From a virus (taxonomy: Duplodnaviria > Heunggongvirae > Uroviricota > Caudoviricetes): a stretch of 30,932 nt of DNA. The translations under genes were made by a program, and so were the position numbers. The notes beneath the pieces are model-generated. The model was not told the DNA's origin. It searched no databases and was given only the letters and a program-made list of their open reading frames with translations. The first letter of the stretch is position 1, and the number at the start of each line of letters is the position of its first letter. The stretch is from positions 1-30,932 of the IMG/VR virus record IMGVR_UViG_2529293142_000025. The stretch is one strand, 5' to 3'. Shown here piece after piece: positions 5,499 through 28,336 of the stretch.

Positions 5499-6373
5499 TT
5501 ACCCTTTACGGTTTGCCCAGAATTCGGCGTTTTGTTTGTTCAGGGAAGCGATACTGGTCATGCCCATGTTTGGGCGCTGTGCATCGCCGGTGGTGGCGCG
5601 GGTGTTTCGCCCTTTGGCAATCTCAGACACGGCATTAAACGCCATGTCGACCGATTGTTTCGGTAATTTGCGGATATCCGCATCACCGACTATCTGGCGA
5701 ACCAGCGTTTTGTCAGCAGAAGCCAGAACCTCACGTTTGAACGCGGTCGGTTTCATCTTACGGCTCAGATCAATACCCGGAACAATAACTTCGGCACGCC
5801 AGGCTGCGTCACCAGTAATCGTGGTTTCCTCTTCATCGTCCTCGCCGTCACCGGTCGGATTATCGTCAGGCTTATTATCGTTATCGCCCGTGGCATTTCC
5901 TTCCAGCTTAGCCAGCAGGGCTTTCAGTAATGTTTTGAGGTCATCATCACTGTCGCCGGTTGGGCCTCCCCCATCTCTGGTGCTTTGTCCGGTAGTGGTT
6001 GCTGCGGGGACAGGTTGATATTGAGATTAACGCCCTGCGGCAAATCCCCCTCATCTCCTGTAACCGATGCGGGAGCCGACTCCACCAGTTCGTTCATGGT
6101 GTCGGCATCTCCTGTCTTGATGGCCGCACGCATGCGGTTCCACCAGTTTTTCTTTTGATTTGCCATTGTGTCTCTGTCTCCAATTGCACAACGATTTCCG
6201 GCTCTGCCTTTAGGGACAAGAGCCACATGGTTTCCGGTAATATCGACCTGCTCAGCTTTACCTGGCTCGGTCTGCTCGTACTCCGCGTCATAGCCGCACG
6301 ACACTTCGCGCAGGCCATCTTCGATAAGCTGAATGGCGTTTTCGTCTTTGACGATAAGGTCAGCCAGCATCAA
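5499..6373 (-). pseudogene. head-assembly (scaffold-like) gene with a reading-frame break
   Basis: 149 aa ORF (5924..6373) ends at TGA, but a second frame with an acidic scaffold-like stretch (DNDNKPDDNPTGDGEDDEEETT) is open from 6026 down to 5499 with no start codon before ATG 5756; frames would join with one extra base in the C5 run at 5968-5972. Confidence 0.35.
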
Positions 6374-6717
6374 ATCAGACTGCTCACCGTCCCGCGCCGG
6401 ACATTCTGGAGGTGCCCGACAGCAAGCTCTTTCCAGTTCTCGGGATTTACCAGCCGCACATTCCCGTTTTCATCTTCAGGATGCAGAATCGTGATGCTCA
6501 TCCCTTCGAATGAGGCAAGCGTGGCCGGATGGAATACCTGCTCAGGAGAACGCGTGACGACTATTTCACCGAACTTATCGGGTTTCAGTTTTGGCAGGTC
6601 ATCAGCACCATAGAGCTGCTTACCTGTTCGTCCTATCGGCACGTCTTTGCACAGCAACGAGCCGTCAGCCAGCTGATAGCGGGTTTCCCCCAGCCGGGTA
6701 TTGAAAAAATATTTCAT
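6370..6717 (-). CDS. phage head-assembly protein (may belong to the same gene family as the adjacent ORF)
   Basis: 115 aa ORF, ATGA overlap with the 149 aa ORF. Confidence 0.35.
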
Positions 6718-6731
6718 GTGTTACCTGCGAT

Positions 6732-7505
6732 TCAGGCGGGATAAGAATGGGAGGTGGGAAAAACGATTTCTTTATAACAGCGACAATTCGGGAGCTCGCC
6801 AGCGTGACCGGTCATGCCATCAAGCGTTGGAGGTTTGCCCCATTCGACAAATTTACCTTCCATTTCCCGATGAGAATGCCTGACGTCACCATCTTCGGCT
6901 GTACGCCAGATATAACCATTCGAACCAATTGCCAGCGCACGCGCCTGATCCAGCGCGCCGGTTGCACGTCCAAGTTCAGTACGGGCAATCAGGTCAGCTC
7001 TGGACTTTGCTATATCACCCGATGCGGCTATTTCTTTAGCAAAATGTTCCGCTCTCCCACCGGTCACAACAGCTTCAATCGCCCGATTCTGGATGTCGTA
7101 CACCCTGTCAGCCGCCTCGAGGGGTAGCGATTTAATGTACTTAACCTGTTCAGCAACGATGGATTTCATCACCTGCCCTGGCGGGGCACTGTTTACCAGA
7201 TTGCGTAGCTCACGGCTGATGGTTTTGCTGTGTTTACGCCACTGCTCATCATTCTTGCGCACAATATCGGCGGTAAAGTTTTCCGCGACCTTTGTCGCCC
7301 AGGGGGTGATGATTTCACTGTAGCGTTCCAGCGCCTCAATAATTTCCGTGATACTGTCATTTGAACCATCGTAGTGACCATTTACGATGTCCCCTACCGC
7401 CCGCGCTATCCTGCGTAGGCTGGTTCGATACCGGATTTCCGCCTGACGGTTCCTGCGGTTCGTCATCAGGTTCGCCGATGCCGGGCGGCGCTTCATCTTC
7501 GGCAT
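6732..7505 (-). CDS. head morphogenesis protein, Mu F-like
   Basis: C-terminal motif ...WRTAEDGDVRHSHREMEGKFVEWGKP...GHAGELPNCRCY typical of F-like minor head proteins; located after portal; start uncertain (all ATG starts overlap portal by over 100 nt). Confidence 0.55.
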   Translation of the reverse strand: MPKMKRRPASANLMTNRRNRQAEIRYRTSLRRIARAVGDIVNGHYDGSNDSITEIIEALERYSEIITPWATKVAENFTADIVRKNDEQWRKHSKTISRELRNLVNSAPPGQVMKSIVAEQVKYIKSLPLEAADRVYDIQNRAIEAVVTGGRAEHFAKEIAASGDIAKSRADLIARTELGRATGALDQARALAIGSNGYIWRTAEDGDVRHSHREMEGKFVEWGKPPTLDGMTGHAGELPNCRCYKEIVFPTSHSYPA

Positions 7506-8823
7506 TCTCGATGTCCTCGTCGGTAATGGATGCCCCGATGCCGGTTACGTCAGAATTTTCTCGCAAATCAGTCATAGCGGCCTTCAGTGTCATCAGACCA
7601 TCACCCAGCGCTGTACTGATTGCGTTGGTAGTGTTTAACGCCACCGTTGAGCGATCGACATCAGACATTTGCCAGAGCGGGTTAAACTCAAACGTGAAAT
7701 CGTCCGGCAGCGGCTTGCCAAGCTCCGAACGATGCATGATGTCCAGTATCCGCCGCACCGGAAGACGTAAACGCCTCTCCTGCAACGAACTGATGCGGTC
7801 GTAATAGTTGGCAAGGTCTGCATCACCGGTAGAAAATCCTTTCGGGGACTGTCCGAACAACCGCACCAGTGGGATACCAACAGCGCCACTAATCTGTTCT
7901 GCAAACTGTGATAGGATGTCATCCAGACCACTGAAGCTGTACTGATGCGTTTCAAACTTATCCCGCGAGTCCATGAGCGTCATGCCTTCATTGCTCTGGA
8001 ACTGTCGAATCAGGTCGATATTCTTCAGCAACGCTTCATACGCAGGACCACCAAGTGCGATAAGCTCGCGTAGCTTCTCCACGCTGTAGGTACGCAAATG
8101 CGCTTTGTAGACCAGCTGCGCCGCGCCGACAGTAGCGCTGTCGAACGCGGTAAGACGATCCCAGATACGCTCTACAACCGACATTCCCCATTCGTTCTCG
8201 GTCATCTTCTGCTGAAATGGCAGCGTGACGCCATCAAAGCGAATCAGTCGACTGTGATGAATGCGCCAGGCAGGAATTCCCGTTGCTGTGGTCACCACAT
8301 CGTAAAACTCAGGTTTACCCAGGTCCGGCCCCATATCTTTAATGCGGCGGGTCAGTACCGGGTCAATCATCCAGCGGTCGAGCGGGAGAATCCCCTTAAA
8401 CTTGCCCTTACCGATGGTTTCGGGTCGCAGCGGGGTCATTGGTGCCTGCCCCTCAATCATGATGAAACCCACCGCGCCGCCGTAGAGACGCGACCATTTC
8501 AGCACGTCATTCAGCGCATCCCAGATTTGCAACTCATCCAGTTGTGATTCGAGAATGCCACGATCTTTTGCATCAATTTCCGAAGTGATGCGAATGCCTT
8601 TGCGGGTCATATCATCCGGGATAGCATCGACTGCTTCGCCGATGATCCAGGATGAACGATAGGACCATTCCACCAGCATGCGGTTACGACTGGTGAAATT
8701 AGCCCGGTAGGTGGATGCTGAGTGCTGGTTAGGTGTCTGCATCCCTACGCGGGCAATAAAATTCTCATAACCATCAGCTGTGGCCTGCGCAGTTCGCCGC
8801 AGGGCTTGTTTGTTTCGTGCCAT
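7357..8823 (-). CDS. portal protein
   Basis: 488 aa ORF immediately after terminase large subunit, acidic C-terminus; start shares position 8823 with terminase stop. Confidence 0.6.
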   Translation of the reverse strand: MARNKQALRRTAQATADGYENFIARVGMQTPNQHSASTYRANFTSRNRMLVEWSYRSSWIIGEAVDAIPDDMTRKGIRITSEIDAKDRGILESQLDELQIWDALNDVLKWSRLYGGAVGFIMIEGQAPMTPLRPETIGKGKFKGILPLDRWMIDPVLTRRIKDMGPDLGKPEFYDVVTTATGIPAWRIHHSRLIRFDGVTLPFQQKMTENEWGMSVVERIWDRLTAFDSATVGAAQLVYKAHLRTYSVEKLRELIALGGPAYEALLKNIDLIRQFQSNEGMTLMDSRDKFETHQYSFSGLDDILSQFAEQISGAVGIPLVRLFGQSPKGFSTGDADLANYYDRISSLQERRLRLPVRRILDIMHRSELGKPLPDDFTFEFNPLWQMSDVDRSTVALNTTNAISTALGDGLMTLKAAMTDLRENSDVTGIGASITDEDIENAEDEAPPGIGEPDDEPQEPSGGNPVSNQPTQDSAGGRGHRKWSLRWFK

Positions 8824-10226
8824 CAGGCCTGTCTCCCCAGCTGTTCCCAGATATCCAGCGATGTATCAATTGGCGCGAAGGCCATAATGAATGCGTCAGC
8901 AACGTTTGGTGACGGTATCTCGCGTTTTGCGAGGTCTTTTTTACTTTCGACCATCACACGTCCGTTACGGTCAAAATCGCGATGAGGTGTTGTCAGTTCC
9001 AGTTTCAGCTTTTCAAGCAACGGACAACGAGAATCTATGCTGATCAGCTCATCCACAGGATACTGTTCTCCGTTGTTAATGGCGTTAAACGTATTTCTGA
9101 AACGGTCAGCCACCAGCCACCATGCCTGAGCCTTAAGATTTGCGAAAAAGTCTTTGTTGGGGATGCCGTTGTATTCGTCATCTGGCTCATGCACACCAGC
9201 ACCGGCGTTAAACCTCTGGTAATTCACACGTCTCGCGTATGCATTCTCGCTCTTCCGGTCAGCGTTAATTTCAGAGAATTTAGCACCGGCAGACGCACCA
9301 ACACCGATAGAGTCGTAAACAATTTCTGCTTCACGCTCCAGCGCCGCCTGATAAGTACGCTGGCAGCTCTTCAGTAATTCATCTTCTTTGGCCTTCCATT
9401 CGTCGGCCCAGAAAACAACGGATCCGTGACGGTAAACGTTAGCGCACTTATCTGTACCACTGTCAGCCACGTCAAAGCCAATACGCTTTCTTCCACTGGG
9501 TTCGAAATTTAACGTTTTGTGCGCATCCACTGCGGCTTCTATCCAGGACAGTTTGATGATTGCCGCATCATCATCAGACTCCGGAACGCCCTCATACACA
9601 TGTTTAAAACCATCCGGATCACGGCGTCGCGCCGCGTCGATAACCTTAAGCATGGTGTCAGACAGAAACGGATTTTCGTCATAGTTAATTTTGCGGATGA
9701 GAGTGCCTTCGGGCGGATCAACAACGAAGTTGCGCCAGACGAAATCAGTAACAAGTCCGGGATTGAATATGAACCAGCATTCCGAACCCTCTTTACGGAT
9801 CGTTGGCTCCAGAATTTTCCACTGGTATTCCGTCAGTGCGTGGGCTTCTTCCAGCCACAACACATCGATCCCCTCCAGTGACTTAATTTCTTCGATGTTG
9901 CGCCATAATCCATAAAAAACAAATTCCGAGCCAGTAACCCGGTTAATGATTTTGTTGTTCAGAATACGGAAACGGTGCCGCAGGCCAAACCTGTCTATCT
10001 GAATTTTGAGCAGGGTATACACCGACTCTTCGATTTTGTTCTGGATCTGACGGGCACAACAAAAACGCAGGGTGTATTTATTCGACAGAAATATGGCAAT
10101 ACCAGCGGCATCCCATGATTTTGACGATGACCGGCCACCATAAAGCACTTTGTTACGTGCCCGCGTAGTCCAGAAACTACGTAAAGCCGGATTAAGCGTC
10201 GGTTTGGATGTCAGAGTAGAAGTCAT
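8823..10226 (-). CDS. terminase large subunit
   Basis: Walker A-like YGGRSSSKS near N-terminus, about 470 aa; start chosen at ATG 10224-10226 (alternative ATG at 10244); the longer track ORF start is probably not used. Confidence 0.8.
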   Translation of the reverse strand: MTSTLTSKPTLNPALRSFWTTRARNKVLYGGRSSSKSWDAAGIAIFLSNKYTLRFCCARQIQNKIEESVYTLLKIQIDRFGLRHRFRILNNKIINRVTGSEFVFYGLWRNIEEIKSLEGIDVLWLEEAHALTEYQWKILEPTIRKEGSECWFIFNPGLVTDFVWRNFVVDPPEGTLIRKINYDENPFLSDTMLKVIDAARRRDPDGFKHVYEGVPESDDDAAIIKLSWIEAAVDAHKTLNFEPSGRKRIGFDVADSGTDKCANVYRHGSVVFWADEWKAKEDELLKSCQRTYQAALEREAEIVYDSIGVGASAGAKFSEINADRKSENAYARRVNYQRFNAGAGVHEPDDEYNGIPNKDFFANLKAQAWWLVADRFRNTFNAINNGEQYPVDELISIDSRCPLLEKLKLELTTPHRDFDRNGRVMVESKKDLAKREIPSPNVADAFIMAFAPIDTSLDIWEQLGRQA

Positions 10227-10941
10227 TGAGGTCACGCTCTCCATTGCCATCATCAATACCTGCATCACGGCGAAGACGATCAGCCTCCAGAGACACCTTA
10301 TCGGTGGCGGCCTTGCGGTAGGCTGTATCAGCAAATATTTTTCCTACCGTCGCAAGCGTGCCAACGATGGACTCAATACGAACTGTATTGCGCATCATTG
10401 CTTTCTCGGCGGCGCTGATATTTTCCATCAGCATCTTCCTTTCCTGGTCCCCATTAGCATCTTCCAGCGACACCAGCCACCGACCAATATTCTCTGCAGC
10501 GACAAGGTTGTTAGCACGAAGGCGAAATAATTCGTCCTCGAGCGTCAACGCTTTAGCGTCCTCTATCACCTCATCTTTGAGCAGAAGGCGACGGGCATAA
10601 CCACCGTGTTTTAATGCCTGCTGGTTACCGGGTTGGAATGGGTTAGTCGGGGGATCGGTACGCATTCCGCGTATCGGTTTCGTATCCGGTGTAGCTTCTG
10701 TTTTTGGTTGCGTACCTTTTTGTGTAAGGCCAGTAATGGCAGGCTTTCTGCTGGTACGCACTTTTCTTTTTTGCGTACCATTTTTGCAAACCTGCGTACC
10801 GCCACTGCGTACCCAACCAAGCTTTTTAGCCCTCTTCCTGATAGCCCCTTCTGTTACGCCATATTTCTCGCCTATATCACGGAGGCTAAGGACTCCGGCC
10901 CGGTATGCCGTTTCGATGGCCTCCCAGTCCGGTTTTGCCAT
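10192..10941 (-). CDS. terminase small subunit (HTH DNA-binding)
   Basis: 249 aa ORF directly upstream of large subunit; N-terminal HTH-like LSLRDIGEKYGVTEGAIRKRAKKLGW. Confidence 0.6.
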   Translation of the reverse strand: MAKPDWEAIETAYRAGVLSLRDIGEKYGVTEGAIRKRAKKLGWVRSGGTQVCKNGTQKRKVRTSRKPAITGLTQKGTQPKTEATPDTKPIRGMRTDPPTNPFQPGNQQALKHGGYARRLLLKDEVIEDAKALTLEDELFRLRANNLVAAENIGRWLVSLEDANGDQERKMLMENISAAEKAMMRNTVRIESIVGTLATVGKIFADTAYRKAATDKVSLEADRLRRDAGIDDGNGERDLNDFYSDIQTDA

Positions 10942-10999
10942 GAATTTTTCCTCTTAGTGACATTATCGCAGCCCCTCACCGAAGGGCTGCTGTAATGCC

Positions 11000-11188
11000 T
11001 TAACCCAGTTTCGCTCGCACCAGAGCATCTTTTGCTTCAAGCAATTTACGTAACCCAGCCGACTTTTCCGGACCGTCTGGCAAAGATTCATCCATTACTC
11101 TTGCCAGTTCACCAATTGGCTTACTCACTTCCTTTAACGAAGTCGGAAGATGCTCATAATTGAAATATTTCATAATTGACGATTCCAT
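11000..11188 (-). CDS. small hypothetical protein upstream of terminase
   Basis: 62 aa; AAGGAGA SD placed 6 nt before the second ATG of the track ORF. Confidence 0.35.
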   Translation of the reverse strand: MESSIMKYFNYEHLPTSLKEVSKPIGELARVMDESLPDGPEKSAGLRKLLEAKDALVRAKLG

Positions 11189-11220
11189 CATTTCTCCTTA
11201 GTAAAACAATTATCAGGCGA

Positions 11221-11402
11221 TCAGTTCTGCATACACTGCCGGACACCGTCGACAATTTCACAGACCTGAGAAGCTGTATCGAAAAGCTGGCGCGCCTTAT
11301 CCAGGCTGACGCATCCCACCAGGAAAAAGGCACCAGTATCGCTACCAGTGCCCATTTCGCCGCCGTTCGCGGCATTCTGTGTGTCCAGTGTTTTCGGCTC
11401 AT
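11221..11402 (-). pseudogene. lysis-associated lipoprotein (Rz1/o-spanin-like), frame broken in a homopolymer run
   Basis: ATG 11400-11402 with AGGTG SD encodes MSRKHWTHRMPRTAAKWALVAILVPF...; the next frame reads ...FFLVGCVSLDKARQLFDTASQVCEIVDGVRQCMQN-stop at 11221; one extra base in the run at 11324-11328 (T5 on the coding strand) yields a 61 aa lipoprotein precursor with basic n-region, hydrophobic core and LVGC lipobox. Confidence 0.45.
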
Positions 11403-11416
11403 AACACACCTGGTTA

Positions 11417-11800
11417 TCAGCGTTTCAACTGAAAGTGAGGCCCGTCTTTCAGTGTTTTCCAGTCCCCGCCCCATTCGATGGCAGTTCCCAGCTCTGCGGC
11501 AGCCTGCTTAAATGCCTGCGCGATTTTCTCGTACAGAGGCCAGTCCCATGACACCTGGCTGCCAATGTAGGCCACAACATCCACCGCATCACCGGTCAGG
11601 TGGCGGCTGTTCATGGTCTGGCTCTTGCCTTCTGCAACCAGCTGTTTCTGGCGTTCTTTCGTGCGCAGACCTTCTGTAACACCGAAATCAACCTCCGTCA
11701 GCTCCAGCGCACGGCGAACGACAGCAACCAGCTGTGGTTTGACGCCCTCCAGATTTTTTTCACTGCGACGACTGAATCTGAATTTACCCGACATGCTCAC
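11417..11800 (-). CDS. endolysin, peptidase M15 (L-alanyl-D-glutamate/D-Ala-D-Ala peptidase type)
   Basis: 127 aa with H..D and GGDW-type motifs of M15 peptidases; sits in the lysis cassette after holin genes. Confidence 0.65.
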   Translation of the reverse strand: MSMSGKFRFSRRSEKNLEGVKPQLVAVVRRALELTEVDFGVTEGLRTKERQKQLVAEGKSQTMNSRHLTGDAVDVVAYIGSQVSWDWPLYEKIAQAFKQAAAELGTAIEWGGDWKTLKDGPHFQLKR

Positions 11801-12072
11801 CTCCGGAATGAAAGGATTTTTGAAACGTTCCCGCGTGCGCGTATTACCAGCACGCAGAACAGCAAATTAAGCCCCACCGCCAGCCAGTTCGCCGCTAACG
11901 GGCGACCACACAGATAGCTGAGGGGCGCAAAGGCATACAGCAGCATCAGCAGCCAGGCCAGCCATGACATCAGCGGTTTGTGTCTGGAGTCACGACGACG
12001 ATAAAAAAAGAGCGTCAGCACGATAACCGTGCATAACGCCACATTCAGCAATCCGGGAAGGTTACTTAACAT
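11797..12072 (-). CDS. small multi-TM membrane protein (holin/antiholin-like)
   Basis: about 91 aa with 2-3 hydrophobic segments; ATGA coupling to endolysin start at 11797-11800. Confidence 0.4.
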   Translation of the reverse strand: MLSNLPGLLNVALCTVIVLTLFFYRRRDSRHKPLMSWLAWLLMLLYAFAPLSYLCGRPLAANWLAVGLNLLFCVLVIRARGNVSKILSFRR

Positions 12073-12454
12073 TGCCGCCTCCTCCACCCCGCAGGCGGGA
12101 GAACAGGCCGGACACCAGTGATGCGATATCCTGCTGGTGGATGAACGACAGAATCTTCACCGACACCACCGCCACCAGCACCGCACACAGTGCATCCGCA
12201 GATGTACCGTCATAACCTGTTTTTGATGCAATCCAGGCTGACAGTACACGCGCCCCCAGTACACCAACAATGAACGACACCAGAAAATGTGCCGCCACAC
12301 GCCAGGCTGAAATCTTCTGCGGCATCGTTGCCACAAACAACGCCCCGGCGAACGCACCAAACACAATCCCGAAATCCGTTCCGGTAAACAGCCCGAATAC
12401 CGTCGCCCCGCCGAGCGCCGCAGCCGTGCCGGAACCGGATAAGGGTTCAGACAT
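12062..12454 (-). CDS. putative holin
   Basis: 130 aa Gly/Ala-rich membrane protein starting MSEPLSGSGTAAALGG; AGGAG SD 8 nt upstream of ATG 12452-12454; the track ORF upstream extension is not supported. Confidence 0.5.
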   Translation of the reverse strand: MSEPLSGSGTAAALGGATVFGLFTGTDFGIVFGAFAGALFVATMPQKISAWRVAAHFLVSFIVGVLGARVLSAWIASKTGYDGTSADALCAVLVAVVSVKILSFIHQQDIASLVSGLFSRLRGGGGGNVK

Positions 12455-12472
12455 ACTTTTTCTCCTGTAAAT

Positions 12473-12494
12473 AAAAAAGGGCCACCAGCGGCCC
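12473..12494 (-). terminator. Rho-independent terminator between cargo cassette and holin
   Basis: minus-strand hairpin GGGCCGCTGGTGGCCC followed by TTTTTT. Confidence 0.5.
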
Positions 12495-12545
12495 GTAAAA
12501 AACAACACCCCGTCAAAGGCACCCGCAGATGCCTTTTGTGTGGTG

Positions 12546-12698
12546 TTATTCAGATTTGCGCAGTAAAGGCCGGAGTACGGCCAGCGCCATCGCCACCAGC
12601 ACACCATCTGCCAGCACCGACATCAGCCGTCCGGTGAAATCCACCACCACTACCAGAAACAGCAGGATGGCAGCCAGCACAAGGCGCGCACTTTTCAC
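12546..12698 (-). CDS. small hydrophobic protein (50 aa, two predicted TM segments)
   Basis: GTG start with GGAG SD 8 nt upstream, overlapping the stop of the TerB-like gene; VKSARLVLAAILLFLVVVVDF...; below the ORF-track size cutoff. Confidence 0.3.
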   Translation of the reverse strand: MKSARLVLAAILLFLVVVVDFTGRLMSVLADGVLVAMALAVLRPLLRKSE

Positions 12699-13120
12699 AG
12701 GTACTGCTCCAGCGGTAACTGCAGCGCCTGAGCAATTTTCTTGAGCTGTGCTTCTTCATCCGGACCAATGCCATCCTGGTCAGCGATATCCAGACACAGG
12801 CACAGCACATTAACTGCATCATCAGTACCGGCAACATCAGCCAGCTGACGAAGGGCTTCGGCATTGGCAGAACGCGGCGACGCTTCATAACGGGCGCGGA
12901 TATTTGCACTCATTTGTGCAATCTCACCGGAGAACGGCGCAAAGGCAGGAAGTGCTGCAATGGTTTTCTCCAGTACCGCGACTTCTTTCGCGTCACAGGT
13001 GTCGTCAGCATATGCAATGGAATACGCGCCCCAGACGGTCGCCTCCACTGCGTCGCGGTTCTCCATCTTCTTCACTTCGGTAATGGCCTTGCGGGTTTTC
13101 TTTTTGAAAATACCAAACAT
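12695..13120 (-). CDS. TerB-like domain protein (cargo gene)
   Basis: 141 aa; two repeats of the pattern hydrophobic-A-x-D-[DG]-x4-E (AYADDTCDAKE and DIADQDGIGPDEE) as in TerB/DjlA-N helical domains; memory-based. Confidence 0.45.
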   Translation of the reverse strand: MFGIFKKKTRKAITEVKKMENRDAVEATVWGAYSIAYADDTCDAKEVAVLEKTIAALPAFAPFSGEIAQMSANIRARYEASPRSANAEALRQLADVAGTDDAVNVLCLCLDIADQDGIGPDEEAQLKKIAQALQLPLEQYL

Positions 13121-13493: not shown

Positions 13494-13518
13494 TAAAAAA
13501 ACCGCCCGGTGGAGGCGG
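13494..13518 (-). terminator. Rho-independent terminator downstream of the tRNA genes
   Basis: minus-strand hairpin CCGCCTCCACCGGGCGG followed by TTTTTTT. Confidence 0.5.
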
Positions 13519-13800
13519 TAAAGGATGTATTTCCAGGTTTTGCTTAGTATATGATTAATCTCAATGTCATTTTTAGCGATGTTTACAACATCGGGATGGC
13601 ACATCACCGACCCTGTCAGGAAATACAAAATCTCCACCGACAATGCGCCATTCCGATGTTATAAAAAAATCAGCACTGATACCGTAATAAATAACATTCA
13701 TTACAGGACGGGATGTAGTAAGGAGTCAGGGTAAAACAAAAACATCCCACACATATAATGTGTCAGTGCCTAACACAACCTAGCATCTATTGTCCTCTGC

Positions 13801-13875
<75 letters not shown>

Positions 13876-13878
13876 ATA

Positions 13879-13954
<76 letters not shown>

Positions 13955-14202
13955 ATTGGCTCTTCAGGGGAGCGATATCACCGCTCAAAGAAGAGTTCCC
14001 CCTCAGAGCCGTTTTCGATGATACGATTTAATACTCCAATCGCAACAACACCTTGCGTCAAGTTATGTAAATTTATTTATATGTTTTTATTTTATGTGAA
14101 TAATTCACTTTCACTTAAAATATAAATGACAATATATAAACAAATTTATTTTGAAGGCGATTATTAAATGTCGTTTCTGATATCACGCCCCAGAAACAAC
14201 AA

Positions 14203-15112: not shown

Positions 15113-15173
15113 ATCTGTCGCGGTCTCTATCCAGGACGCCAATCCCGACGCCAGATTTTGCTGGCGCGTGAGG

Positions 15174-16963: not shown

Positions 16964-17105
16964 ATAGAGACAAAAATATTAATCTGAAAAATATTTATTT
17001 CACGTCGTATATTTGATTATTTAATGTGCAGGTGCAATGACTTTTATTTTTGTTGTGTATATAATCAAATATATGGTTATTTTTCACCCTGCGTATTCAG
17101 CGCGC

Positions 17106-19804: not shown

Positions 19805-20229
19805 GCCATCACCTCCTGAAAATTACCCTGATAAAACGCCAACACTCGCTGCATAACCTCACTCTTCCGGCACTCGCGACAGATTATGTTCAGGTGTCTG
19901 TCGTAGCGGCGTATTTCTCCGTCTGGTAACTTTCGAATCAGTGTCTGGTCAGTTGTTTTCTCCGGTGTCTTACGCCATTCACGATACGCCTGCTCTGATG
20001 CAAAAACACCGTATTCCCCGGACATATATAAATCACCACAAGCCAGTACATCCACAAGGCAGCGTCGGACCGAATGCCAGCCAGCTCCCGTCGCTCTCTC
20101 CAGTTGCGACATCGTCATGCGTTCATTTTTGCGTACCAACCCGATAATTCGTGCCTTTAGCTCTTCCCGCTGTTCGGATGTAAAAACTTTTGCCACAAGT
20201 CCTCCTGAAAAATCACCTTCACAATTCAT
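19801..20229 (-). CDS. Ren-like protein
   Basis: 142 aa; C-terminal LNIICRECRKSEVMQRVLAFYQG resembles lambda Ren C-terminus; located directly after the P-like gene as in lambda. Confidence 0.4.
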   Translation of the reverse strand: MNCEGDFSGGLVAKVFTSEQREELKARIIGLVRKNERMTMSQLERATGAGWHSVRRCLVDVLACGDLYMSGEYGVFASEQAYREWRKTPEKTTDQTLIRKLPDGEIRRYDRHLNIICRECRKSEVMQRVLAFYQGNFQEVMA

Positions 20230-20891
20230 ACAAAACCAGCTGCCTTCCGGCGTTCATACTCCCGTTTCAGCAACTCAATTGGTGTTGGCCCCGACGGGCG
20301 TTTTGGTGCTGCCAGTTGCCGCCGTACGGGCGGAACGCTGAAGCCGTCACCAACATGCTTTGCCCATTTCGCTAGTTGCCGTTCTGCAAGTCGTTTTAAC
20401 TCCCCTTCGGTCATCTGGCGCTCAATCCCCTTTGAACGCATCTCGAGGCAAATGTGATACAGCACAGGCTGAGACCACGGGTATTTATCGCTTCCGTCGT
20501 ATCGCCAGGACTCATTGCGCCAGCGGCGGTACTCCTTCATCACAACATCAACCGTCAGACCGAATGGATTGGCTCCGCTTTCCGAAATCAGTGCCACAAA
20601 CTCAGCCAGGTCCGGAGGCCATGTTTCACCCGTCCGGCAGCGGTCCATGCACTGGCGGCAGACCTGTCGGATTTGCTGCTCAGTCATCGCGCCAATCTGT
20701 GCAATCCAGAGCTTCGAAGGTGCGGCCCCGTTCTTCTGGGTCCAGCGGTTCGAATAAATCTCCCCCATGAGTTCCCACAGCTTCCAGGCAGTTTCCGTCG
20801 TTGATAAATCCGTTTTCACGTTCCCACTGCTCACGTGCTGCCCGAATTTCCTGAACTGCCCGTGATGCGGTGCCACCTGGCGCGGCTGCAT
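20226..20891 (-). CDS. replication protein P-like (helicase loader)
   Basis: 221 aa; central and C-terminal similarity to lambda P (..YPWSQPVLYH.. vs ..YPWKSNAHYW..); SD AAGGGGGTGA before ATG 20889-20891. Confidence 0.6.
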   Translation of the reverse strand: MQPRQVAPHHGQFRKFGQHVSSGNVKTDLSTTETAWKLWELMGEIYSNRWTQKNGAAPSKLWIAQIGAMTEQQIRQVCRQCMDRCRTGETWPPDLAEFVALISESGANPFGLTVDVVMKEYRRWRNESWRYDGSDKYPWSQPVLYHICLEMRSKGIERQMTEGELKRLAERQLAKWAKHVGDGFSVPPVRRQLAAPKRPSGPTPIELLKREYERRKAAGFV

Positions 20892-21726
20892 GACTCACCC
20901 CCTTGCTGACTGGTTTAACCTGCGCCCTGACGTGATTTACGTGACGGGCGAATTTCTGCTCCCACTGAACCTGCGTGAACACTTTGCCCTCATCGCTCCA
21001 GTAATCCCGGAAGGCGGCAAGTTCAGCAGGTGTAAATTCCGGCTCCGGCAGAGCCACTCCCCACAGTGCAGCCCGTCGTCGGAAATCCGGCGACGGATTC
21101 CAGCCGGCGGTCATCGGAAATTTTCCGATGGGTTCGCTCAGGCCTTCCAGGTAATCAGGTTCCGTTGCCTGCAACGGCAAACCATTCGACTCACTGACCG
21201 GAGCACTCTCGCGCACGCGCGCGTTATGTGTGGGGTTTAATTCTTTATCTGTATCTTTATCTGTCGTGACTCGTCGTGACATGTCGTGACATATGCGTGA
21301 CTCGTCGCGCGCCCCCTCATTCTGTTTTCGTAATTTTTCCCTCTCGCGCTGCGCTCTCTTGCGCTCTGCCGGGGATTTCGCGGTTTGTGAAACGTTGCCA
21401 TTGTCCTCTTTCAGTACCTGGCGTTTTTCCCATCCACTGATCAAATCTCCATCAAGTACCCGCCCCTGCATTGCCTGTAAAATTGAATCAATTACTTCTT
21501 CCGTCACATCAAGCGCACTTGCTAAATCTTCCGCTGTGACATCAATGTGACCACGTAGTGACACGCCGTGACATGTCGTGACATTTCGTGACGCGCTCAC
21601 CAGAAGGTGGATATACACAGCCATCACTGTTGCGATTGGCTGTCCTGACACCCTGGAAATTGTTCGCCACTTAGGATCGTTTGGCATGTCATGCCATAAT
21701 CTGAGCCAGGCGTTAGCCATACTCAC
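20680..21726 (-). CDS. replication initiator O-like protein with DnaT-like C-terminal domain; 3-prime end uncertain
   Basis: N-terminal HTH/replisome-organizer-like region; FPMTAGWNPSPDFRRRAALWGVALPEPEFTPAELAAFRDYWSDEGKVFTQVQWEQKFAR matches the DnaT C-terminal region from memory; contains two iteron arrays; the ORF overlaps the P-like gene by 212 nt. Confidence 0.55.
   Translation of the reverse strand: MSMANAWLRLWHDMPNDPKWRTISRVSGQPIATVMAVYIHLLVSASRNVTTCHGVSLRGHIDVTAEDLASALDVTEEVIDSILQAMQGRVLDGDLISGWEKRQVLKEDNGNVSQTAKSPAERKRAQREREKLRKQNEGARDESRICHDMSRRVTTDKDTDKELNPTHNARVRESAPVSESNGLPLQATEPDYLEGLSEPIGKFPMTAGWNPSPDFRRRAALWGVALPEPEFTPAELAAFRDYWSDEGKVFTQVQWEQKFARHVNHVRAQVKPVSKGVSHAAAPGGTASRAVQEIRAAREQWERENGFINDGNCLEAVGTHGGDLFEPLDPEERGRTFEALDCTDWRDD
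21233..21301. repeat. iteron array 1 with adjacent AT-rich tract (candidate replication origin)
   Basis: AT-rich TTCTTTATCTGTATCTTTATCTG followed by 4 direct repeats GTCGTGAC with 10 bp periodicity. Confidence 0.55.
21545..21592. repeat. iteron array 2
   Basis: 4-5 direct repeats of nTnGTGAC with 10 bp periodicity, same orientation as array 1. Confidence 0.5.
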
Positions 21727-21791
21727 CTCTTCTGATACCGAATCTTTTTACTCACGAATTGCCGGAAGCGATCCGGTATGAATATTGTCAG

Positions 21792-22217
21792 TCAATGCAC
21801 AACCACAATATTTCCCGCCGGACCACCACGATTCATCTGATTGAAACCAGCGATCGCCACTGCGACAAAATCATCAGCGTCTCTCACCAGTCGTTCCCGC
21901 GTCTCCACCAGCTCCCGAAAATAGGCTGAACTGTGGCTGCGCATTCGGGCCACCAGCAGAGGTGGCATTGCTGTTTCGATCGCTGGTAACAATGCCTGAA
22001 TTTTTTTAACCGCATCAGGGGTGTCTTTCTCCACCCAGCGGAAAATTTTCTGAGTATTGCGAGCCAGGGCTTCCGGATGGCTGTCGTCATACAGTTCTGG
22101 GAACGTCATACCCAGTTCAAAATAAGCCCTGGTTATTTCAGCTGCCGGAACTTTTTCACCGTCCGGATGCGCCCAGGCATTCATCGCCATGCGGATGTGT
22201 TCATGCTTGATTTTCAT
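21792..22217 (-). CDS. ydaT: YdaT-like protein (CII-position gene of Rac-type immunity region)
   Basis: 141 aa beginning MKIKHEHI; position immediately after the cro-like gene. Confidence 0.45.
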   Translation of the reverse strand: MKIKHEHIRMAMNAWAHPDGEKVPAAEITRAYFELGMTFPELYDDSHPEALARNTQKIFRWVEKDTPDAVKKIQALLPAIETAMPPLLVARMRSHSSAYFRELVETRERLVRDADDFVAVAIAGFNQMNRGGPAGNIVVVH

Positions 22218-22482
22218 GAATCAAGCTCCTAGAAAGTGGTTGTGTTAACGTTTTGGTATCTTCCAGCTCGGGCCAAATATTCATCCAATCAAAAGGCCTT
22301 AGTTGCTGACGTGTAACTTCACCATTACTGGCTCGCTCAATAAGGACACATAACGATGCCCCTAACACTTGACCTTTACTCAATGCCTTTCTTAGATAAC
22401 CGATGCTGGTACCACACTCGCATGCAAACATACGCTGTTCATCTGACGAAAGAGAATTGAGAAATATTCTTAATTCTTCCAT
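22201..22482 (-). CDS. ydaS: YdaS-like Cro-type HTH regulator
   Basis: 93 aa with HTH-like CGTSIGYLRKALSKGQ; divergent from repressor gene. Confidence 0.5.
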   Translation of the reverse strand: MEELRIFLNSLSSDEQRMFACECGTSIGYLRKALSKGQVLGASLCVLIERASNGEVTRQQLRPFDWMNIWPELEDTKTLTQPLSRSLIHENQA

Positions 22483-22499
22483 AGCTACTCCTTAGTAAA

Positions 22500-22582
22500 C
22501 ACAGCAAAGAATACCTGCAGGTAAACAAAAGTCAATACCCACAGGTTGTTTACCTTGCAGTAATCGCATCTATTATTTACCT
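22500..22582. promoter_or_regulatory. divergent promoter/operator region between ydaS-like and racR-like genes
   Basis: inverted half-sites GGTAAACAA (22520-22528) and TTGTTTACC (22546-22554) within flanking inverted repeats CCTGCAGGTAAACAA / TTGTTTACCTTGCAG. Confidence 0.5.
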
Positions 22583-23001
22583 ATGGACAAATATGAATTT
22601 AGACGACAGCAACTCATCAAAATTCGTGATGAGAAATGCGATGGTAAAGCGGTTAACGTGGCCAGAAAGATCGGGCGCGAGCCTTCTTATGTATCAAGAA
22701 TGTTGTACCCAGAGGGGAAAAAGGGAAAAAACGGATCGCTGATGATATGGTGGAGATTATCGAAGAGTCCTTTGGGTTACCCCGGGGATGGATGGATGGT
22801 ATCGTTTCATCATCAACGAACACAGCCTCCAGTTATGAAACAAGGGTTCTAACGCCACGACAACGTATTTTTTTAGATCTCTTAGACGAACTGCCAGAAA
22901 GTGAAGCGGATAACTTATTAAAAACTCTTGAAGAGAAAAAACAGTATTACAATATGATCTACGAAGAAATCCGTAAAAAGAAAGCACAAAACGCATCATA
23001 G
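22583..23001 (+). pseudogene. racR: RacR-like prophage repressor, split by a frame break in an A-run
   Basis: ORF 22583..22852 carries the N-terminal HTH (VARKIGREPSYVSRML) then decays into non-protein-like sequence; ORF 22747..23001 carries the C-terminal part and is open upstream without a start; frames join with one extra A in the A6 run at 22726-22731. Confidence 0.55.
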
Positions 23002-23045
23002 CTCACCAAACAACTAGTCACCAGTTAAGACACCGCAAAAAATTT

Positions 23046-23080
23046 ACCCATAGGTATTTACTTTTTAAATACCTATGGGT
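23046..23080 (+). terminator. perfect 15 bp inverted repeat downstream of racR (terminator or protein-binding palindrome)
   Basis: ACCCATAGGTATTTA-CTTTT-TAAATACCTATGGGT followed by T-rich ATCCTTCTTTTC. Confidence 0.35.
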
Positions 23081-23260
23081 ATCCTTCTTTTCATACCAAC
23101 TCACCCCGCTCCACAGAATGCAGGGCAATACTTCGAGTTACCAGGCAGTGGTCAGGGGTTAAGTAGCCAGCCCGAGGCATACGAACATGACGGCAGTTGT
23201 TGATTGATACAAAGCGCAGTAGATAAAACGTTCCGCCACCCGGCGTTAAGGGGAAAAAAG

Positions 23261-23479
23261 ATGGTTGGTGAAGATCTGGTTGTTATTAACGGTCAATTGT
23301 GCAGCAAAGATGTGGCAGCCATGCTTATTAGCAAGGTTCTTCCAACTGTGCTGGAGGTCATTGCAGAAAAAGTAAAGGCTGGTCGTCCAGACAAGGAAGT
23401 TGAAGAGGCGGCAAAAACAGTTGTTCATGCCGCTACAGAAGCAATTATTTTGAAGAGCCTAGTTTCGCCCAAGCCTTAA
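23261..23479 (+). CDS. small hypothetical protein (YdaF/YdaG-position)
   Basis: 72 aa from ATG 23261 with AAGGGG SD. Confidence 0.35.
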   Translation: MVGEDLVVINGQLCSKDVAAMLISKVLPTVLEVIAEKVKAGRPDKEVEEAAKTVVHAATEAIILKSLVSPKP

Positions 23480-23639
23480 GTGAATCGGAGCTTTTTTTAG
23501 CATCACGTTCATTAAGTAGTGACAAAAACTCATTCTCAGCATTCTCGATTTCCGAGAAAAATTCTTGATGAGTTGTTTCTCGCTGCGATCTGATGCTGAA
23601 AGCTAAAGCAAGTAGCCAGGCTTTGTCTTTATTATCCAT
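23445..23639 (-). CDS. hypothetical small protein in sieB-position region
   Basis: 64 aa ORF, no clear SD; convergent with the preceding gene. Confidence 0.2.
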   Translation of the reverse strand: MDNKDKAWLLALAFSIRSQRETTHQEFFSEIENAENEFLSLLNERDAKKSSDSLKAWAKLGSSK

Positions 23640-24044
23640 CGGAATACCTTATTACTGGTTGTGTGAGAACTCCAGTATACCACCGAGCCTGAAGTGGTAA
23701 AAAGACAGGCGCACAACACGAAGGCGCACGGAGGAGGTGTTTTTCCCTTAGAAGGCTTGTCGTTAAACTTCTTCGACCGTGCGCTTCCGGTTGTGAATAA
23801 CAACACTGCTGTGTGTAGTCTTGGTGGCATCAGTTTTTTCTTGAAGTTCGACTGATGTCCGCCCTTTTTAAAGTGAATTTTGTGATGCGGTGAATGCGGC
23901 TAAGCGCACGCGGCACAGTTAAAAGTCATGTTAGTCCTTATTGGTTTGGGTGGGAAAGCCGACTGTAATTGTTAACTGGTTGCAGTCACCTGGAGGCACC
24001 AGGCACCGCATCAACAAAGTTCATTTGTAAAAATGGAGATAATT

Positions 24045-24266
24045 ATGATTGCACATCACTTCGGAACTGATGAAATACCACGTCAGTGTGTGACTCCTGG
24101 TGATTATGTTCTTCATGAAGGCCGGACATATATCGCCTCGGCAAACAATATTAAAAAGCGAAAACTTTATATTCGTAACCTGACTACAAAAACATGCATT
24201 TCTGACTGCATGATTAAAGTCTTCCTCGGTCGTGATGGTTTACCTGTAAAGGCGGAGTCATGGTGA
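24045..24266 (+). CDS. kilR: KilR, FtsZ-targeting killing protein of Rac-type prophage
   Basis: 73 aa [32 protein letters not shown]...; GGAG SD 7 nt upstream; matches KilR as recalled. Confidence 0.7.
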
Positions 24267-24436
24267 TGACTAAGAAAATAAAATGTGCTTACCACCTTTG
24301 CAATAAAGGAATTGAAGAAAGCAAAAGCATTAAAAGACCACTTCATTTCATGCGTGGAGTTATCCCAACGACGGAAATGAAAAAATATTGTAGTGAAAAT
24401 TGTGCCGAAAAAGACCAGATGGCACACGAACTTTAA
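24266..24436 (+). CDS. ydaE: YdaE, small Cys-rich zinc-binding protein
   Basis: 56 aa [56 protein letters not shown]; start overlaps kilR stop (TGATG); below ORF-track cutoff. Confidence 0.6.
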   Translation: MTKKIKCAYHLCNKGIEESKSIKRPLHFMRGVIPTTEMKKYCSENCAEKDQMAHEL

Positions 24437-24509
24437 TTAACTGACTATGCGAAACTGAATTTATGCCAGCAATGGCAGGGATTCGCTCAACCTTAATTAA
24501 GGAGAAAAA

Positions 24510-24785
24510 ATGATTACCAATTATGAAGTCACTGTTGTAACTACCGATGACATTGTTCACGAGGTTAATCTGGAAGGAAAGCGTATTGGCTACGTGATTA
24601 AAACAGAAAATAAAGAAACCCCATTCACTGTGGTTGATATTGACGGTCCATCAGGCAACGTAAAAACACTTGATGAAGGTGTCACAAAAATGAGTCTGGT
24701 TCACATCGGAAAGAATCTGCCCGCAGAAAAAAAAGCCGGATTTCTGGCAACTCTGATTGCAATGAAATTAAAAGGTGAAATCTGA
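24510..24785 (+). CDS. racC: RacC
   Basis: 91 aa MITNYEVTVVTTDDIVHEVNLEGKRIGYVIKTENKETPF...; matches RacC as recalled. Confidence 0.65.
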   Translation: MITNYEVTVVTTDDIVHEVNLEGKRIGYVIKTENKETPFTVVDIDGPSGNVKTLDEGVTKMSLVHIGKNLPAEKKAGFLATLIAMKLKGEI

Positions 24786-24883
24786 AAAAAGAAAGCCTGC
24801 ACAACGTGCAGGCCTGAGTGAAGAACCTGGGACATTTATTCATCACTCGCAGTAATTTTAATCTGAGTTGAGGTTAAAAAACA

Positions 24884-27535
24884 ATGAGCACAAAACCACT
24901 CTTCCTTTTACGGAAAGCGAAAAAATCATCCGGTGAACCTGACGTCGTCCTGTGGGCAAGCGACGATTTTGAATCAACCTGTGCCACTCTGGACTACCTG
25001 ATCGTTAAGTCAGGTAAAAAACTGAGCAACTATTTTAAAGCTGTTGCCACAAATTTTCCTGTCGTTAATGACCTTCCCCCTGAAGGTGAGATCGATTTTA
25101 CCTGGAGTGAACGCTATCAACTCAGCAAAGACTCCATGACCTGGGAACTAAAACCGGGAGCAGCGCCAGACGACGTTCACCATCAGGAGGATGCACCGGA
25201 AACCGAAGAAGCGACGGGAGGCCAGGAAGAAAACGCGCAGGCAGACGCCCACGAGGATTGCCAGGATTGCGAAGTCTCTGTAGCCACTTTGCGGTTCACA
25301 CAGCGTCTTCTGCACATTTTTACGTATGCAGCCGGGGATCGAAAATACCTGCATCATGCCACCCGTGAACAACGCAAACACATTACTGCTCTTGAGATGG
25401 ATCAGGAAAACAGCTATGTCCAGAATCTGCTGTTGGCCATACGCAGCATGGCAGAACCGACAACTCTGGATAATGCCGCCCTGCTCCGCCTGACTGATGC
25501 AATTAAGGCAGTGTTCTCTATCACGAAAAAACATCAGCCCTATGAATTTAAGAATTTCATTTCAGCCTGGCTGGATACCGAACACATTGATCGCGGTCTT
25601 CTGACAAAAGAATGGCGAAAAGGGAATCGTGTTTCACGCATCACTCGCACGGCTTCCGGTGCTAATGCTGGCGGCGGGAACCTCACCGATCGCGGCGAAG
25701 GTTTCGTCCACGATCTGACATCACTGGCGCGCGATGTAGCCACTGGCGTACTGGCCCGTTCAATGGACGTGGACATCTATAACCTTCATCCGGCACACGC
25801 TAAACGCATTGAGGAAATTATCGCTGAAAATAAACCACCCTTTTCTGTTTTCCGCGACAAATTCATCACCATGCCTGGCGGGCTGGATTATTCCCGCGCC
25901 ATCGTGGTTGCGTCCGTGAAAGAAGCACCAATTGGGATCGAGGTCATCCCCGCACACGTCACTGAATATCTGAACAAAGTACTGACTGAAACCGATCATG
26001 CCAACCCTGATCCGGAAATCGTGGATATTGCCTGCGGTCGCTCCTCGGCCCCGATGCCGCAACGAGTAACAGAAGAAGGAAAACAGGACGATGAAGAAAA
26101 ACCACAACCATCTGGCGCAATGGCAGATGAACAGGCAACGGCTGAAACAGTGGAACCGAATGCAACTGAACATCATCAGAACACGCAGCCGCTGGATGCT
26201 CAGTCACAGGTAAATTCTGTTGATGCGAAATATCAGGAACTGCGGGCAGAACTCCATGAAGCCCGGAAAAACATTCCATCAAAAAATCCTGTCGATGCCG
26301 ATAAATTGCTTGCTGCATCACGTGGTGAATTTGTTGACGGAATTAGCGACCCGAACGATCCGAAATGGGTTAAGGGGATCCAGACTCGCGATTCTGTGTA
26401 CCAGAACCAGCCAGAAACGGAAAAAATCAGCCCGGATGCGAAACAACCTGAGCCAGTAGTGCAACAGGAACCGGAAATAGTCTGCAATGCCTGCGGTCAG
26501 ACTGGCGGGGATAACTGCCCTGACTGTGGTGCGGTGATGGGCGACGCAACATACCAGGAAACATTCGGTGAAGAGAATCAGGTTGAAGCTAAGGAAAAAG
26601 ATCCGGAGGAAATGGAAGGCGCTGAACATCCGCACAATGAGAATGCTGGCAGCGATCCGCATCGCGATTGCAGTGATGAAACTGGCGAAGTCGCAGATCC
26701 CGTAATCGTAGAAGACATAGAGCCAGGTATTTATTACGGAATTTCGAATGAGAATTACCACGCGGGTCCCGGCGTCAGTAAGTCTCAGCTCGATGACATT
26801 GCTGATACTCCGGCACTGTATTTGTGGCGTAAAAATGCCCCCGTGGACACTACAAAGACAAAAACGCTCGATTTAGGAACCGCTTTCCACTGCCGGGTAC
26901 TTGAACCGGAAGAATTCAGTAACCGCTTTATCGTAGCACCTGAATTTAACCGCCGTACAAACGCCGGAAAAGAAGAAGAGAAAGCGTTTCTGATGGAATG
27001 CGCAAGCACAGGAAAAACGGTTATCACTGCGGAAGAAGGCCGGAAAATTGAACTCATGTATCAAAGCGTTATGGCTTTGCCGCTGGGGCAATGGCTTGTT
27101 GAAAGCGCCGGACACGCTGAATCATCAATTTACTGGGAAGATCCGGAAACAGGAATTTTGTGTCGGTGCCGTCCGGACAAAATTATTCCTGAATTTCACT
27201 GGATCATGGACGTGAAAACCACAGCGGATATTCAACGATTCAAAACGGCTTATTACGACTACCGCTATCACGTTCAGGATGCATTCTACAGTGACGGTTA
27301 TGAAGCACAGTTTGGCGTGCTGCCAACTTTCGTTTTTCTGGTTGCCAGCACAACTGTTGAATGCGGACGTTACCCGGTTGAGATTTTCATGATGGGCGAA
27401 GAAGCAAAACTGGCAGGCCAGCAGGAATATCACCGCAATCTGAGGACCCTGGCTGACTGCCTGAATACCGATGAATGGCCAGCTATTAAAACGTTATCAC
27501 TGCCCCGCTGGGCTAAGGAGTATGCAAATGACTAA
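24884..27535 (+). CDS. recE: exodeoxyribonuclease VIII (RecE), C-terminal PD-(D/E)XK nuclease domain
   Basis: 883 aa; long acidic/disordered N-terminal and central region; C-terminal domain ...[34 protein letters not shown]...[14 protein letters not shown]...[16 protein letters not shown] matches the RecE nuclease domain. Confidence 0.85.
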
Positions 27536-28336
27536 GCAACCACCTATCGCAAAAGCCGATCTGCAAAAAACCCAGGGAAACCGTGCACCAGCAGCAGTAA
27601 AAATAACGACGTGATCAGCTTTATTAATCAGCCATCAATGAAAGAGCAACTGGCAGCAGCTCTCCCACGCCATATGACGGCTGAACGAATGATACGTATC
27701 GCCACCACAGAAATTCGTAAGGTTCCGGCGCTAGGAAACTGTGACACCATGAGTTTTGTCAGTGCGATCGTTCAGTGTTCACAGCTCGGCCTTGAGCCAG
27801 GTAGCGCCCTCGGCCACGCATATTTACTGCCTTTTGGTAATAAAAACGAAAAGAGCGGTAAAAAGAACGTTCAGCTAATCATTGGTTATCGCGGCATGAT
27901 TGATCTGGCTCGCCGTTCTGGTCAAATCGCCAGCCTGTCAGCCCGTGTTGTCCGTGAAGGTGACGAGTTTAGTTTTGAATTTGGCCTTGATGAAAAGTTA
28001 ATACACCGCCCGGGAGAAAACGAAGATGCACCAGTGACCCACGTCTATGCTGTCGCAAGACTGAAAGACGGAGGGACTCAGTTTGAAGTTATGACGCGCA
28101 AACAGATTGAACTGGTGCGCAGCCAGAGTAAGGCTGGTAATAACGGGCCATGGGTAACTCACTGGGAAGAAATGGCAAAAAAAACGGCTATTCGTCGCCT
28201 GTTTAAATACCTGCCTGTCTCAATTGAAATCCAGCGTGCAGTATCAATGGATGAAAAGGAACCACTGACAATCGATCCGGCAGACTCCTCTGTATTAACC
28301 GGGGAATACAGTGTAATCGATAATTCAGAAGAATAA
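27528..28336 (+). pseudogene. recT: RecT single-strand annealing protein, frame broken in an A-run near the 5-prime end
   Basis: ATG 27528 (overlapping recE stop) encodes [28 protein letters not shown]-stop (27612-27614); the main ORF 27611..28336 (VISFINQPSMKEQLAAALPRHM...) is in the next frame; one extra A in the A5 run 27599-27603 restores ...AAVKNNDVISFINQ... Confidence 0.8.

Follow-up and report, generated by a model that had tools for sequence, protein, structure and literature searches.

Prophage genes can come to be split in several ways. Real prophage decay proceeds by large deletions, insertion sequence (IS) insertions, nonsense mutations and substitutions, and its lesions are common to related strains. 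Contingency loci and productive transcriptional slippage usually need homopolymer tracts of ~8-9 nt or more. Frameshifts can also be artificial: in 454 assemblies they are documented to result from homopolymer errors, with A/T runs favoured (PMC3277595). Here we analyse a stretch of 30,932 nucleotides of caudovirus DNA (IMG/VR record IMGVR_UViG_2529293142_000025, positions 1 to 30,932), referred to below, at its full length, as the window. By its gene content the window is identified as an E. coli lambdoid Rac-like prophage, the integrase end of which adjoins yebY. An initial annotation made from the sequence alone had reported that at least four genes (recT, a repressor-like gene, a lysis lipoprotein gene and a head gene), and possibly the junction of the O and P replication genes, change frame at short homopolymer runs, and had offered either sequencing error or genuine slippage as the cause. 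Our comparisons indicate that the frame breaks are very probably consensus errors of this assembly, in which one base has been lost at each of ten homopolymer runs.

Comparison of the window with identical copies of the prophage

Reference copies were found by exact look-up of the window proteins in public assemblies. This placed the same prophage in three NCBI draft genomes, GCA_002133845.1 (NEOK01), GCA_012710875.1 (AATCFV01) and GCA_000225185.3 (AFDY02). In NEOK01 it lies on two contigs, NEOK01000069.1 (spanning window positions 1-8803) and NEOK01000029.1 (spanning 8677-30932), which jointly cover all 30,932 bases; over this length the window differs by one substitution, at 5807, and ten one-base gaps. 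AATCFV01 was the same as NEOK01 over all of the stretches compared (window 1-8782 and 10684-30932), and all three assemblies showed 100% substitution identity to the window over 10684-30932 and the single substitution at 5807 over 1-8803. Each of the ten gaps is a deletion in the window (there are no insertions) and each lies inside a homopolymer. The differences are listed below, the length of the run in the window being given before its length elsewhere.

5452-5454, minus strand: C3 against C4 in all 21 relatives; in the structural cement protein gene
5496-5500, minus strand: T5 against T6 in the references; the run reaches from the stop codon of DUF2213 across a 3-nt spacer to the start codon of the cement gene, and the spacer is shortened with no frame broken
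5807, minus strand: C against A on the plus strand, giving Ser to Ala in DUF2213; the sole substitution in the window against the identical references
5968-5972, minus strand: C5 against C6 in the identical references and CC[G/A]CCC in 98%-identical relatives; in the DUF2213 gene
6387-6388, minus strand: C2 against C3 in all 21 relatives; breaks the DUF2213 gene a second time
11324-11328, minus strand: A5 on the plus strand against A6 in all references; in the lipoprotein gene
13495-13501, minus strand: A7 on the plus strand against A8 in NEOK01, AATCFV01, L040 and L042, with A7 also in AFDY02; non-coding, a terminator-like T tail
13663-13669: A7 against A8 in all references; non-coding, in the stretch that separates the tRNA genes from the lysis cassette
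17047-17051: T5 against T6 in the references; non-coding, flanked by a 70-aa gene and a hok-like gene
22726-22731, plus strand: A6 against A7 in NEOK01 and AATCFV01, with A6 also in AFDY02; in the repressor-like gene
27599-27603, plus strand: A5 against A6 in NEOK01, AATCFV01 and AFDY02, with no mismatches around it; in recT

The initial annotation had named five runs. Frame breaks were confirmed at four of them (27599-27603, 22726-22731, 11324-11328 and 5968-5972), both by three-frame translation and by a run one base longer in the identical copies, but not at the fifth (20898-20902), which is considered below. The same list under-counted the phenomenon, as six further deletions were found, two of them coding (5452-5454 and 6387-6388) and four non-coding (5496-5500, 13495-13501, 13663-13669 and 17047-17051). 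In all, six deletions are coding and four fall in a start/stop spacer, a terminator tail and intergenic DNA, and the genes hit are unrelated to one another. Against the intact copies the window had no nonsense codons, IS elements, larger deletions or rearrangements. When the ten bases were restored, the 269-, 139-, 60- and 168-aa reference open reading frames (ORFs) were recovered letter for letter, as was the 406-aa ORF except for the one substitution.

Among relatives with ~98% identity the longer runs at 5452, 5968 and 6387 were present in 21 of 21, and the longer run at 5496 was scored in 19 of the 21. Over the whole window, eight of the ten short alleles were absent from every relative that was compared across the site (2-21 loci per site, including the three identical copies), with the exception of the recT A5 run in an assembly of SRR057628; the two that are shared, at 22726 and 13495, are shared with AFDY02. 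Homopolymer differences from 95-97% identical relatives at 12457, 13225, 23468 and 23699 were not counted, because the identical references share them and they are ordinary lineage differences.

Two of the non-coding runs lie within sequences that resemble regulatory elements. The shortened run at 13495-13501 is the T tail of a terminator-like hairpin (13501-13519, minus strand). The T run at 17047-17051 sits in the spacer of a sigma-70-like match, ATGACT-17-TATAAT (17037-17065, plus strand), close to the hok-like gene. This is a match to consensus only, and its spacer would be 18 nt long if the run were T6 as in the references.

Dependence of the deletions on run length

Deletions were counted per run according to the true length of the run. 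The counts were 0/16443 for 1 nt, 0/4470 for 2 nt, 1/1086 for 3 nt, 1/314 for 4 nt and 0/126 for 5 nt, and then 5/51 for 6 nt, 1/11 for 7 nt and 2/4 for 8 nt, while runs of 1-2 nt together gave 0/20,913. Eight of the ten deletions are therefore in runs of at least 6 nt, a class that accounts for 1.3% of the bases (binomial P ~5e-14). Nearness to a run of 5-6 nt would not be significant on its own, because the window holds ~190 runs of at least 5 nt, or ~1 per 160 bp. The pattern tracks run length and not gene function, since four of the ten deletions are in non-coding runs.

The differences between the window and the intact copies thus have the properties expected of an artefact: they are confined to homopolymer length (10/10 indels, with one substitution in 30.9 kb), the probability of error rises with run length, and there is indifference to coding status and function. 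The ratio of indels to substitutions is 10:1, opposite to the proportion expected from real divergence. Real E. coli lineages, mismatch-repair mutators included, gain several substitutions per indel in mutation-accumulation studies. Ten indels in 31 kb would extrapolate to ~1,600 per genome.

Genes interrupted in the window

The genes that are broken, as located by three-frame translation of the window, are the following.

27528-28336, plus strand: recT, 269 aa once repaired (PF03837 RecT in the identical prophages)
22583-23001, plus strand: repressor-like gene, 139 aa, divergent from the cro-like and ydaT genes
11221-11402, minus strand: lysis lipoprotein gene, 60 aa, with lipobox LVGC, downstream of the M15 endolysin gene
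5499-6717, minus strand: DUF2213 (PF09979) head gene, 406 aa once repaired, with two breaks in the window
4991-5496, minus strand: structural cement protein gene (PF22758/PF23982), 168 aa once repaired, broken past codon 14

The proposal that split ORF pairs represent single genes held for recT, the repressor-like gene, the lipoprotein gene and the head gene, all of which are intact in the identical prophages (269, 139, 60 and 406 aa respectively). In the window recT consists of a 28-codon head, ending at the stop codon 27612-27614, and a tail in the next frame. When a 1,101-bp recT query was compared with RefSeq complete E. coli genomes, the best 15 of the 1,726 genomes that covered at least 80% of the query all matched at 99.9% over 1,102 bases, i.e. 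with one gap. An exact pattern with the A5 run in it had no match in IMG/VR viral contigs or in GTDB representative genomes, and the A5 run was seen elsewhere solely in the Logan assembly of SRR057628.

The repressor-like gene is split in the window into ORFs of 89 and 84 aa; the 139-aa ORF, for which a Pfam search gave no match, is intact in NEOK01, AATCFV01, L040-L043, L004 and L005. The frame of the lipoprotein gene is lost past codon 26, ahead of the lipobox Cys, and the 60-aa ORF is intact in L037-L040 and L065. For DUF2213 the 406-aa ORF is intact in more than 20 relatives, and the 115-aa fragment specific to the window has no record as a called protein.

Shortened RecT proteins were also encountered elsewhere. 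A 232-aa RecT truncated at the N-terminus was called in 26 blocks of the collection. The loci examined (L055-L064; the region equivalent to window 27523-27604) each had a differing small lesion within the first ~80 nt of recT. Most were one-base indels in various runs, some were insertions, and at one locus an 11-bp deletion takes out the start codon. The assemblies concerned carry many other homopolymer indels, and false recT truncations seem to be common in public assemblies.

The O/P junction

The fifth run named by the initial annotation, as a possible frame break, lies where the two replication genes meet.

20898-20902, minus strand: C5 run, on the coding strand part of GGGGGTGAG, 5 nt upstream of the P start codon (ATG at 20891)
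20226-20891, minus strand: lambda-P-like ORF, 221 aa
20680-21720, minus strand: O-like gene with a DnaT domain, 346 aa, stop codon 20680-20682

The idea of a frame break here can be dismissed. All six relatives that were aligned across the run had no net difference in its length (in one of the alignments BLAST opened two gaps of one base each immediately ahead of the run, which cancel out), and RefSeq genomes annotate the O-like and P genes as separate intact coding sequences. The motif GGGGGTGAG looks like a ribosome-binding site. In the 221-aa ORF the Pfam Phage_lambda_P match starts at residue 56, which lies upstream of where O stops, and the P start is therefore placed within the 3' end of the O gene, in a different frame. 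The P ORF overlaps the last ~212 nt of the O-like gene out of frame, and this long overlap seems to be a conserved property of the replication module. Gene callers place the P start variously (giving 153, 180 or 221 aa) on identical sequences; an analysis of codon positions in the overlap, which could indicate the frame under selection, had only seven substitutions to draw on, too few to inform.

Alleles of the repressor A tract

Split ORFs that are shared by related prophages would indicate true pseudogenes, and among the affected genes such sharing was found only at the repressor run, in AFDY02 and scattered assemblies. In some NCBI, ENA and Logan assemblies the A7 of the tract GGGGAAAAAGGGAAAAAAACGG (22718-22731; loci L044-L054) is shortened to A6. 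The short form occurs on five haplotypes or more, with prophage backbones of both the Rac-like and the Qin/DicB-like kind; one A6 haplotype is identical in substitutions to an A7 locus. The 84-aa product of the downstream half of the gene was called in 99 blocks of the protein-position index, and eight of the ten loci shown are A6. Two RefSeq complete genomes carry the short allele, CP116925.1 (locus L054) and CP122923.1. Across 822 RefSeq complete genomes A6 accounts for at most ~21 (~2.6%) and A7 for ~700, counts which are estimates from evenly spaced rows and hence bounds only, identity bands being unusable for a single gap in 102 nt, which rounds to at least 99%.

Several of the A6 carriers have other signs of sequence error. 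L044 has three one-base deletions relative to L050, two in A7 runs and one in an A3 run; the two loci show no substitutions across the 1.4-kb immunity region and are 99.75% identical over the 8.4 kb that were compared. In L054 a neighbouring gene is flagged as frameshifted, and in L051 and L053 the integrase is split. The presence of A6 across these assemblies is best accounted for by a recurrent miscall at a 7-nt run.

Sequencing history of the related assemblies

AFDY02 is the same as NEOK01 save for two deletions that it has in common with the window, at 13495 (an A8 run) and 22726 (an A7 run), both among the longest A runs. The corrected window contains 15 runs of 7-8 nt, three of which are shortened in the window, and the chance that both of the AFDY02 deletions would be among those three is ~3 in 105. 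This argues that the window and AFDY02 probably derive from the same strain or the same read data. The AFDY project used 3-kb paired-end libraries, 454 Titanium FLX sequencing and Celera 6.0 assembly (PMC3491183). Its strain is ambiguous from the paper alone, because Table 1 gives AFDY00000000 to isolate 031 (O174:H21) and appendix Table A1 gives it to 'H.I.8' (PMC3491183).

A second link is to the early Sequence Read Archive run SRR057628, the Logan assembly of which matched window 26602-30932 with no mismatches and with the same recT A5 run. That assembly has also lost a base at 29952, where a private A6-to-A5 deletion interrupts the integrase gene, so the read set is itself prone to homopolymer loss. 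A literature search found no paper naming SRR057628 or the NEOK or GCA accessions.

The draft contigs of NEOK01, AATCFV01 and AFDY02 that were compared and that carry this prophage all end in the portal/terminase junction (window ~8526-8803). On AFDY02000034.1 an identical head-tail module is joined to another packaging module (Terminase_2 and a 540-aa large subunit), which points to a strain that probably has two prophages with a near-identical shared module that exceeds 8.8 kb. The way in which the window is joined across this shared repeat may have been chosen by the assembler.

Origin of the frame breaks

We consider it highly likely that the frame breaks are consensus errors and that one base was lost at each of the ten runs. 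Under this explanation the chemistry, most likely flow-based pyrosequencing and possibly another homopolymer-blind method, would have under-called the run lengths and the assembler would have kept the short call; we infer this cause from the comparisons between assemblies. Of the two causes that the initial annotation offered, homopolymer-length sequencing error is strongly supported by ten indels that are all -1 and all in homopolymers, alongside one substitution, while the other, real slippage in a prophage undergoing decay or phase variation, is unsupported at a minimum of eight or nine sites out of the ten. Other assemblies of the element show that the true prophage sequence carries intact RecT, repressor-like, lysis lipoprotein, DUF2213 and cement genes.

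Several points weigh against this explanation. The repressor A6, which AFDY02 and other assemblies also carry and which occurs on at least five haplotypes, may be an allele that recurs through genuine slippage. The SRR057628 assembly has the recT A5 too, and this allele would be real in that strain if the sequencing run is independent of the window data. Two deletions occurred in very short runs (C3 and C4), which is unusual for simple flow-signal saturation, and four deletions together with the sole substitution cluster in 940 bp (5452-6389) of the repeated head module. This cluster suggests a locally poor consensus beyond chemistry alone, e.g. through low coverage or a repeat shared with a second prophage. 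Real replication slippage is likewise steeply dependent on run length, and we give a low probability to the A7 tract of the repressor being a genuine slippage hotspot.

The alternatives differ in how many of the sites they take to be real. In the mixed case, which we regard as unlikely, most sites would be artefacts while the repressor A7-to-A6 change, and perhaps the A8-to-A7 change at 13495, would be genuine lineage alleles that arose by replication slippage at the gene's longest A tract; the repressor would be left as an 89-aa protein with an N-terminal helix-turn-helix-like stretch (seen by eye; no Pfam match) and without its C-terminal half. In favour of this, these are the only two deletions shared with AFDY02, a later assembly version without the other eight, and A6 is spread over NCBI, ENA and Logan assemblies, haplotypes and prophage backbones, including CP116925.1 and CP122923.1. 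However, A6 is rare in the RefSeq complete genomes, its carriers (L044, L054, L051, L053) look error-prone, scatter over haplotypes with identical A7 partners is expected from a recurrent 7-nt miscall, and the two shared sites are exactly at the longest runs, where residual errors are expected. A narrower version, somewhat less probable still, takes the repressor tract of this widespread prophage immunity module alone as a real, recurrent hotspot of slippage and the other nine sites as artefacts: the -1 allele would arise independently on many haplotypes and truncate the protein just past its N-terminal helix-turn-helix-like stretch, acting as a mutational switch of prophage immunity.

If all ten deletions were real slippage mutations, recombination, immunity, lysis and head assembly would truly have been lost. 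The breaks are present in the sequence as given, slippage is length-dependent and the SRR057628 assembly has the same recT allele, but we hold such wholesale decay to be very improbable: over 30.9 kb there is one substitution for ten indels, the lesions that accompany decay (substitutions, nonsense mutations, IS elements or larger deletions) are lacking against the intact copies apart from that one substitution, all ten changes are -1 and four are in non-coding runs, none but the repressor run was found in any relative examined, and ~1,600 indels per genome would not be viable as real mutation. Least probable of all is that the runs are phase-variable contingency tracts, or sites where programmed slippage, of the ribosome or during transcription, sets the frame right again. 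In favour of this, transcriptional slippage can occur on A tracts, and the tract of the repressor does vary between assemblies. However, the tracts are only 2-7 nt in the window, the sites are scattered over unrelated genes and non-coding DNA, the relatives' genes are ordinary single ORFs needing no recoding, and no conserved arrangement of slippery heptamer plus structure is required as an explanation. A phase-variable locus would have a tract of ~8 nt or more with both lengths common; here the coding tracts are truly 3-7 nt, the short repressor allele has the low frequency given above and the other short alleles are unseen. Programmed frameshifting would conserve the split frame in relatives, which instead have one uninterrupted ORF per protein.

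Consensus error at the ten runs, the explanation that we favour, changes how the prophage is read. At face value it is without recombination (RecT), immunity, lysis and head assembly; with ten bases restored it is fully intact, identical to the copies in other assemblies of Shiga toxin-producing E. coli type, and probably inducible. The frame breaks matter for annotation and not for biology, as they are not a real feature of the organism. The source assembly likely carries many similar false frameshifts genome-wide, and its pseudogene calls are unfit for inferring decay, phase variation or gene loss.

Organisation of the prophage

The layout of the window was established from annotated RefSeq relatives at 94-99% identity and from Pfam matches.

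1 to ~10.9 kb, minus strand: tail, head, portal and terminase module, E217/Pam3-like
11000-13120, minus strand: lysis cassette, comprising TerB-like (141 aa), DUF3927 (50 aa), Phage_holin_8 (130 aa), Phage_holin_3_7 (91 aa), M15_4 endolysin (125 aa), the 60-aa lipoprotein and a 62-aa protein
13801-13954, minus strand: tRNA-Gly(tcc) and tRNA-Thr(tgt), with the late-regulation genes on one side and the lysis cassette on the other
beyond the two tRNA genes: late-regulation genes (ORF6N, DUF1133/antiterminator-Q-like, YbcO, DUF1367), then the hok-like gene
replication module: the DnaT-domain O-like gene and the lambda-P-like gene
immunity region: ydaT, the cro-like gene and the divergent 139-aa repressor-like gene
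right end: kilR, ydaE, recE, recT, ralR, xis and int
30591-30932: yebY

The prophage is mosaic, in that the relatives of its lysis cassette and replication module differ from those of its head and recombination modules. The Pfam search gave no match for the 60-aa lipoprotein or the 62-aa protein of the lysis cassette; the lipoprotein may have a spanin-like role. A second, decayed immunity region at 23103-23795 was considered and rejected, as tblastn with the immunity proteins of L001 gave no match there.

Comparison with known systems

In having split phage ORFs the window resembles the genuinely decaying cryptic prophages Rac, Qin and DLP12 of K-12, but it is without any of the hallmarks of that process, i.e. 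large deletions, IS insertions, nonsense mutations, substitutions and the sharing of lesions by relatives. Its closest likeness is to the homopolymer consensus errors of Roche 454, Ion Torrent and early nanopore assemblies: the changes are likewise of one base, confined to homopolymers, more frequent in longer runs and dominated by A/T runs, and they likewise give artificial frameshifts and split ORFs that are absent from short-read assemblies of the same sequence (PMC3277595). The window, whose technology is inferred, differs from typical flow-based errors in the two deletions in C3/C4 runs and in the 940-bp cluster. As a prophage it matches the Rac-type and lambdoid prophages that E. coli carries at the yebY-side attachment site, with their recE-recT-ralR genes, kilR, ydaS/ydaT-like immunity region and E217/Pam3-like head-tail genes, in both gene order and content at 94-99% identity, and once the ten bases are restored there is no biologically meaningful difference between them.

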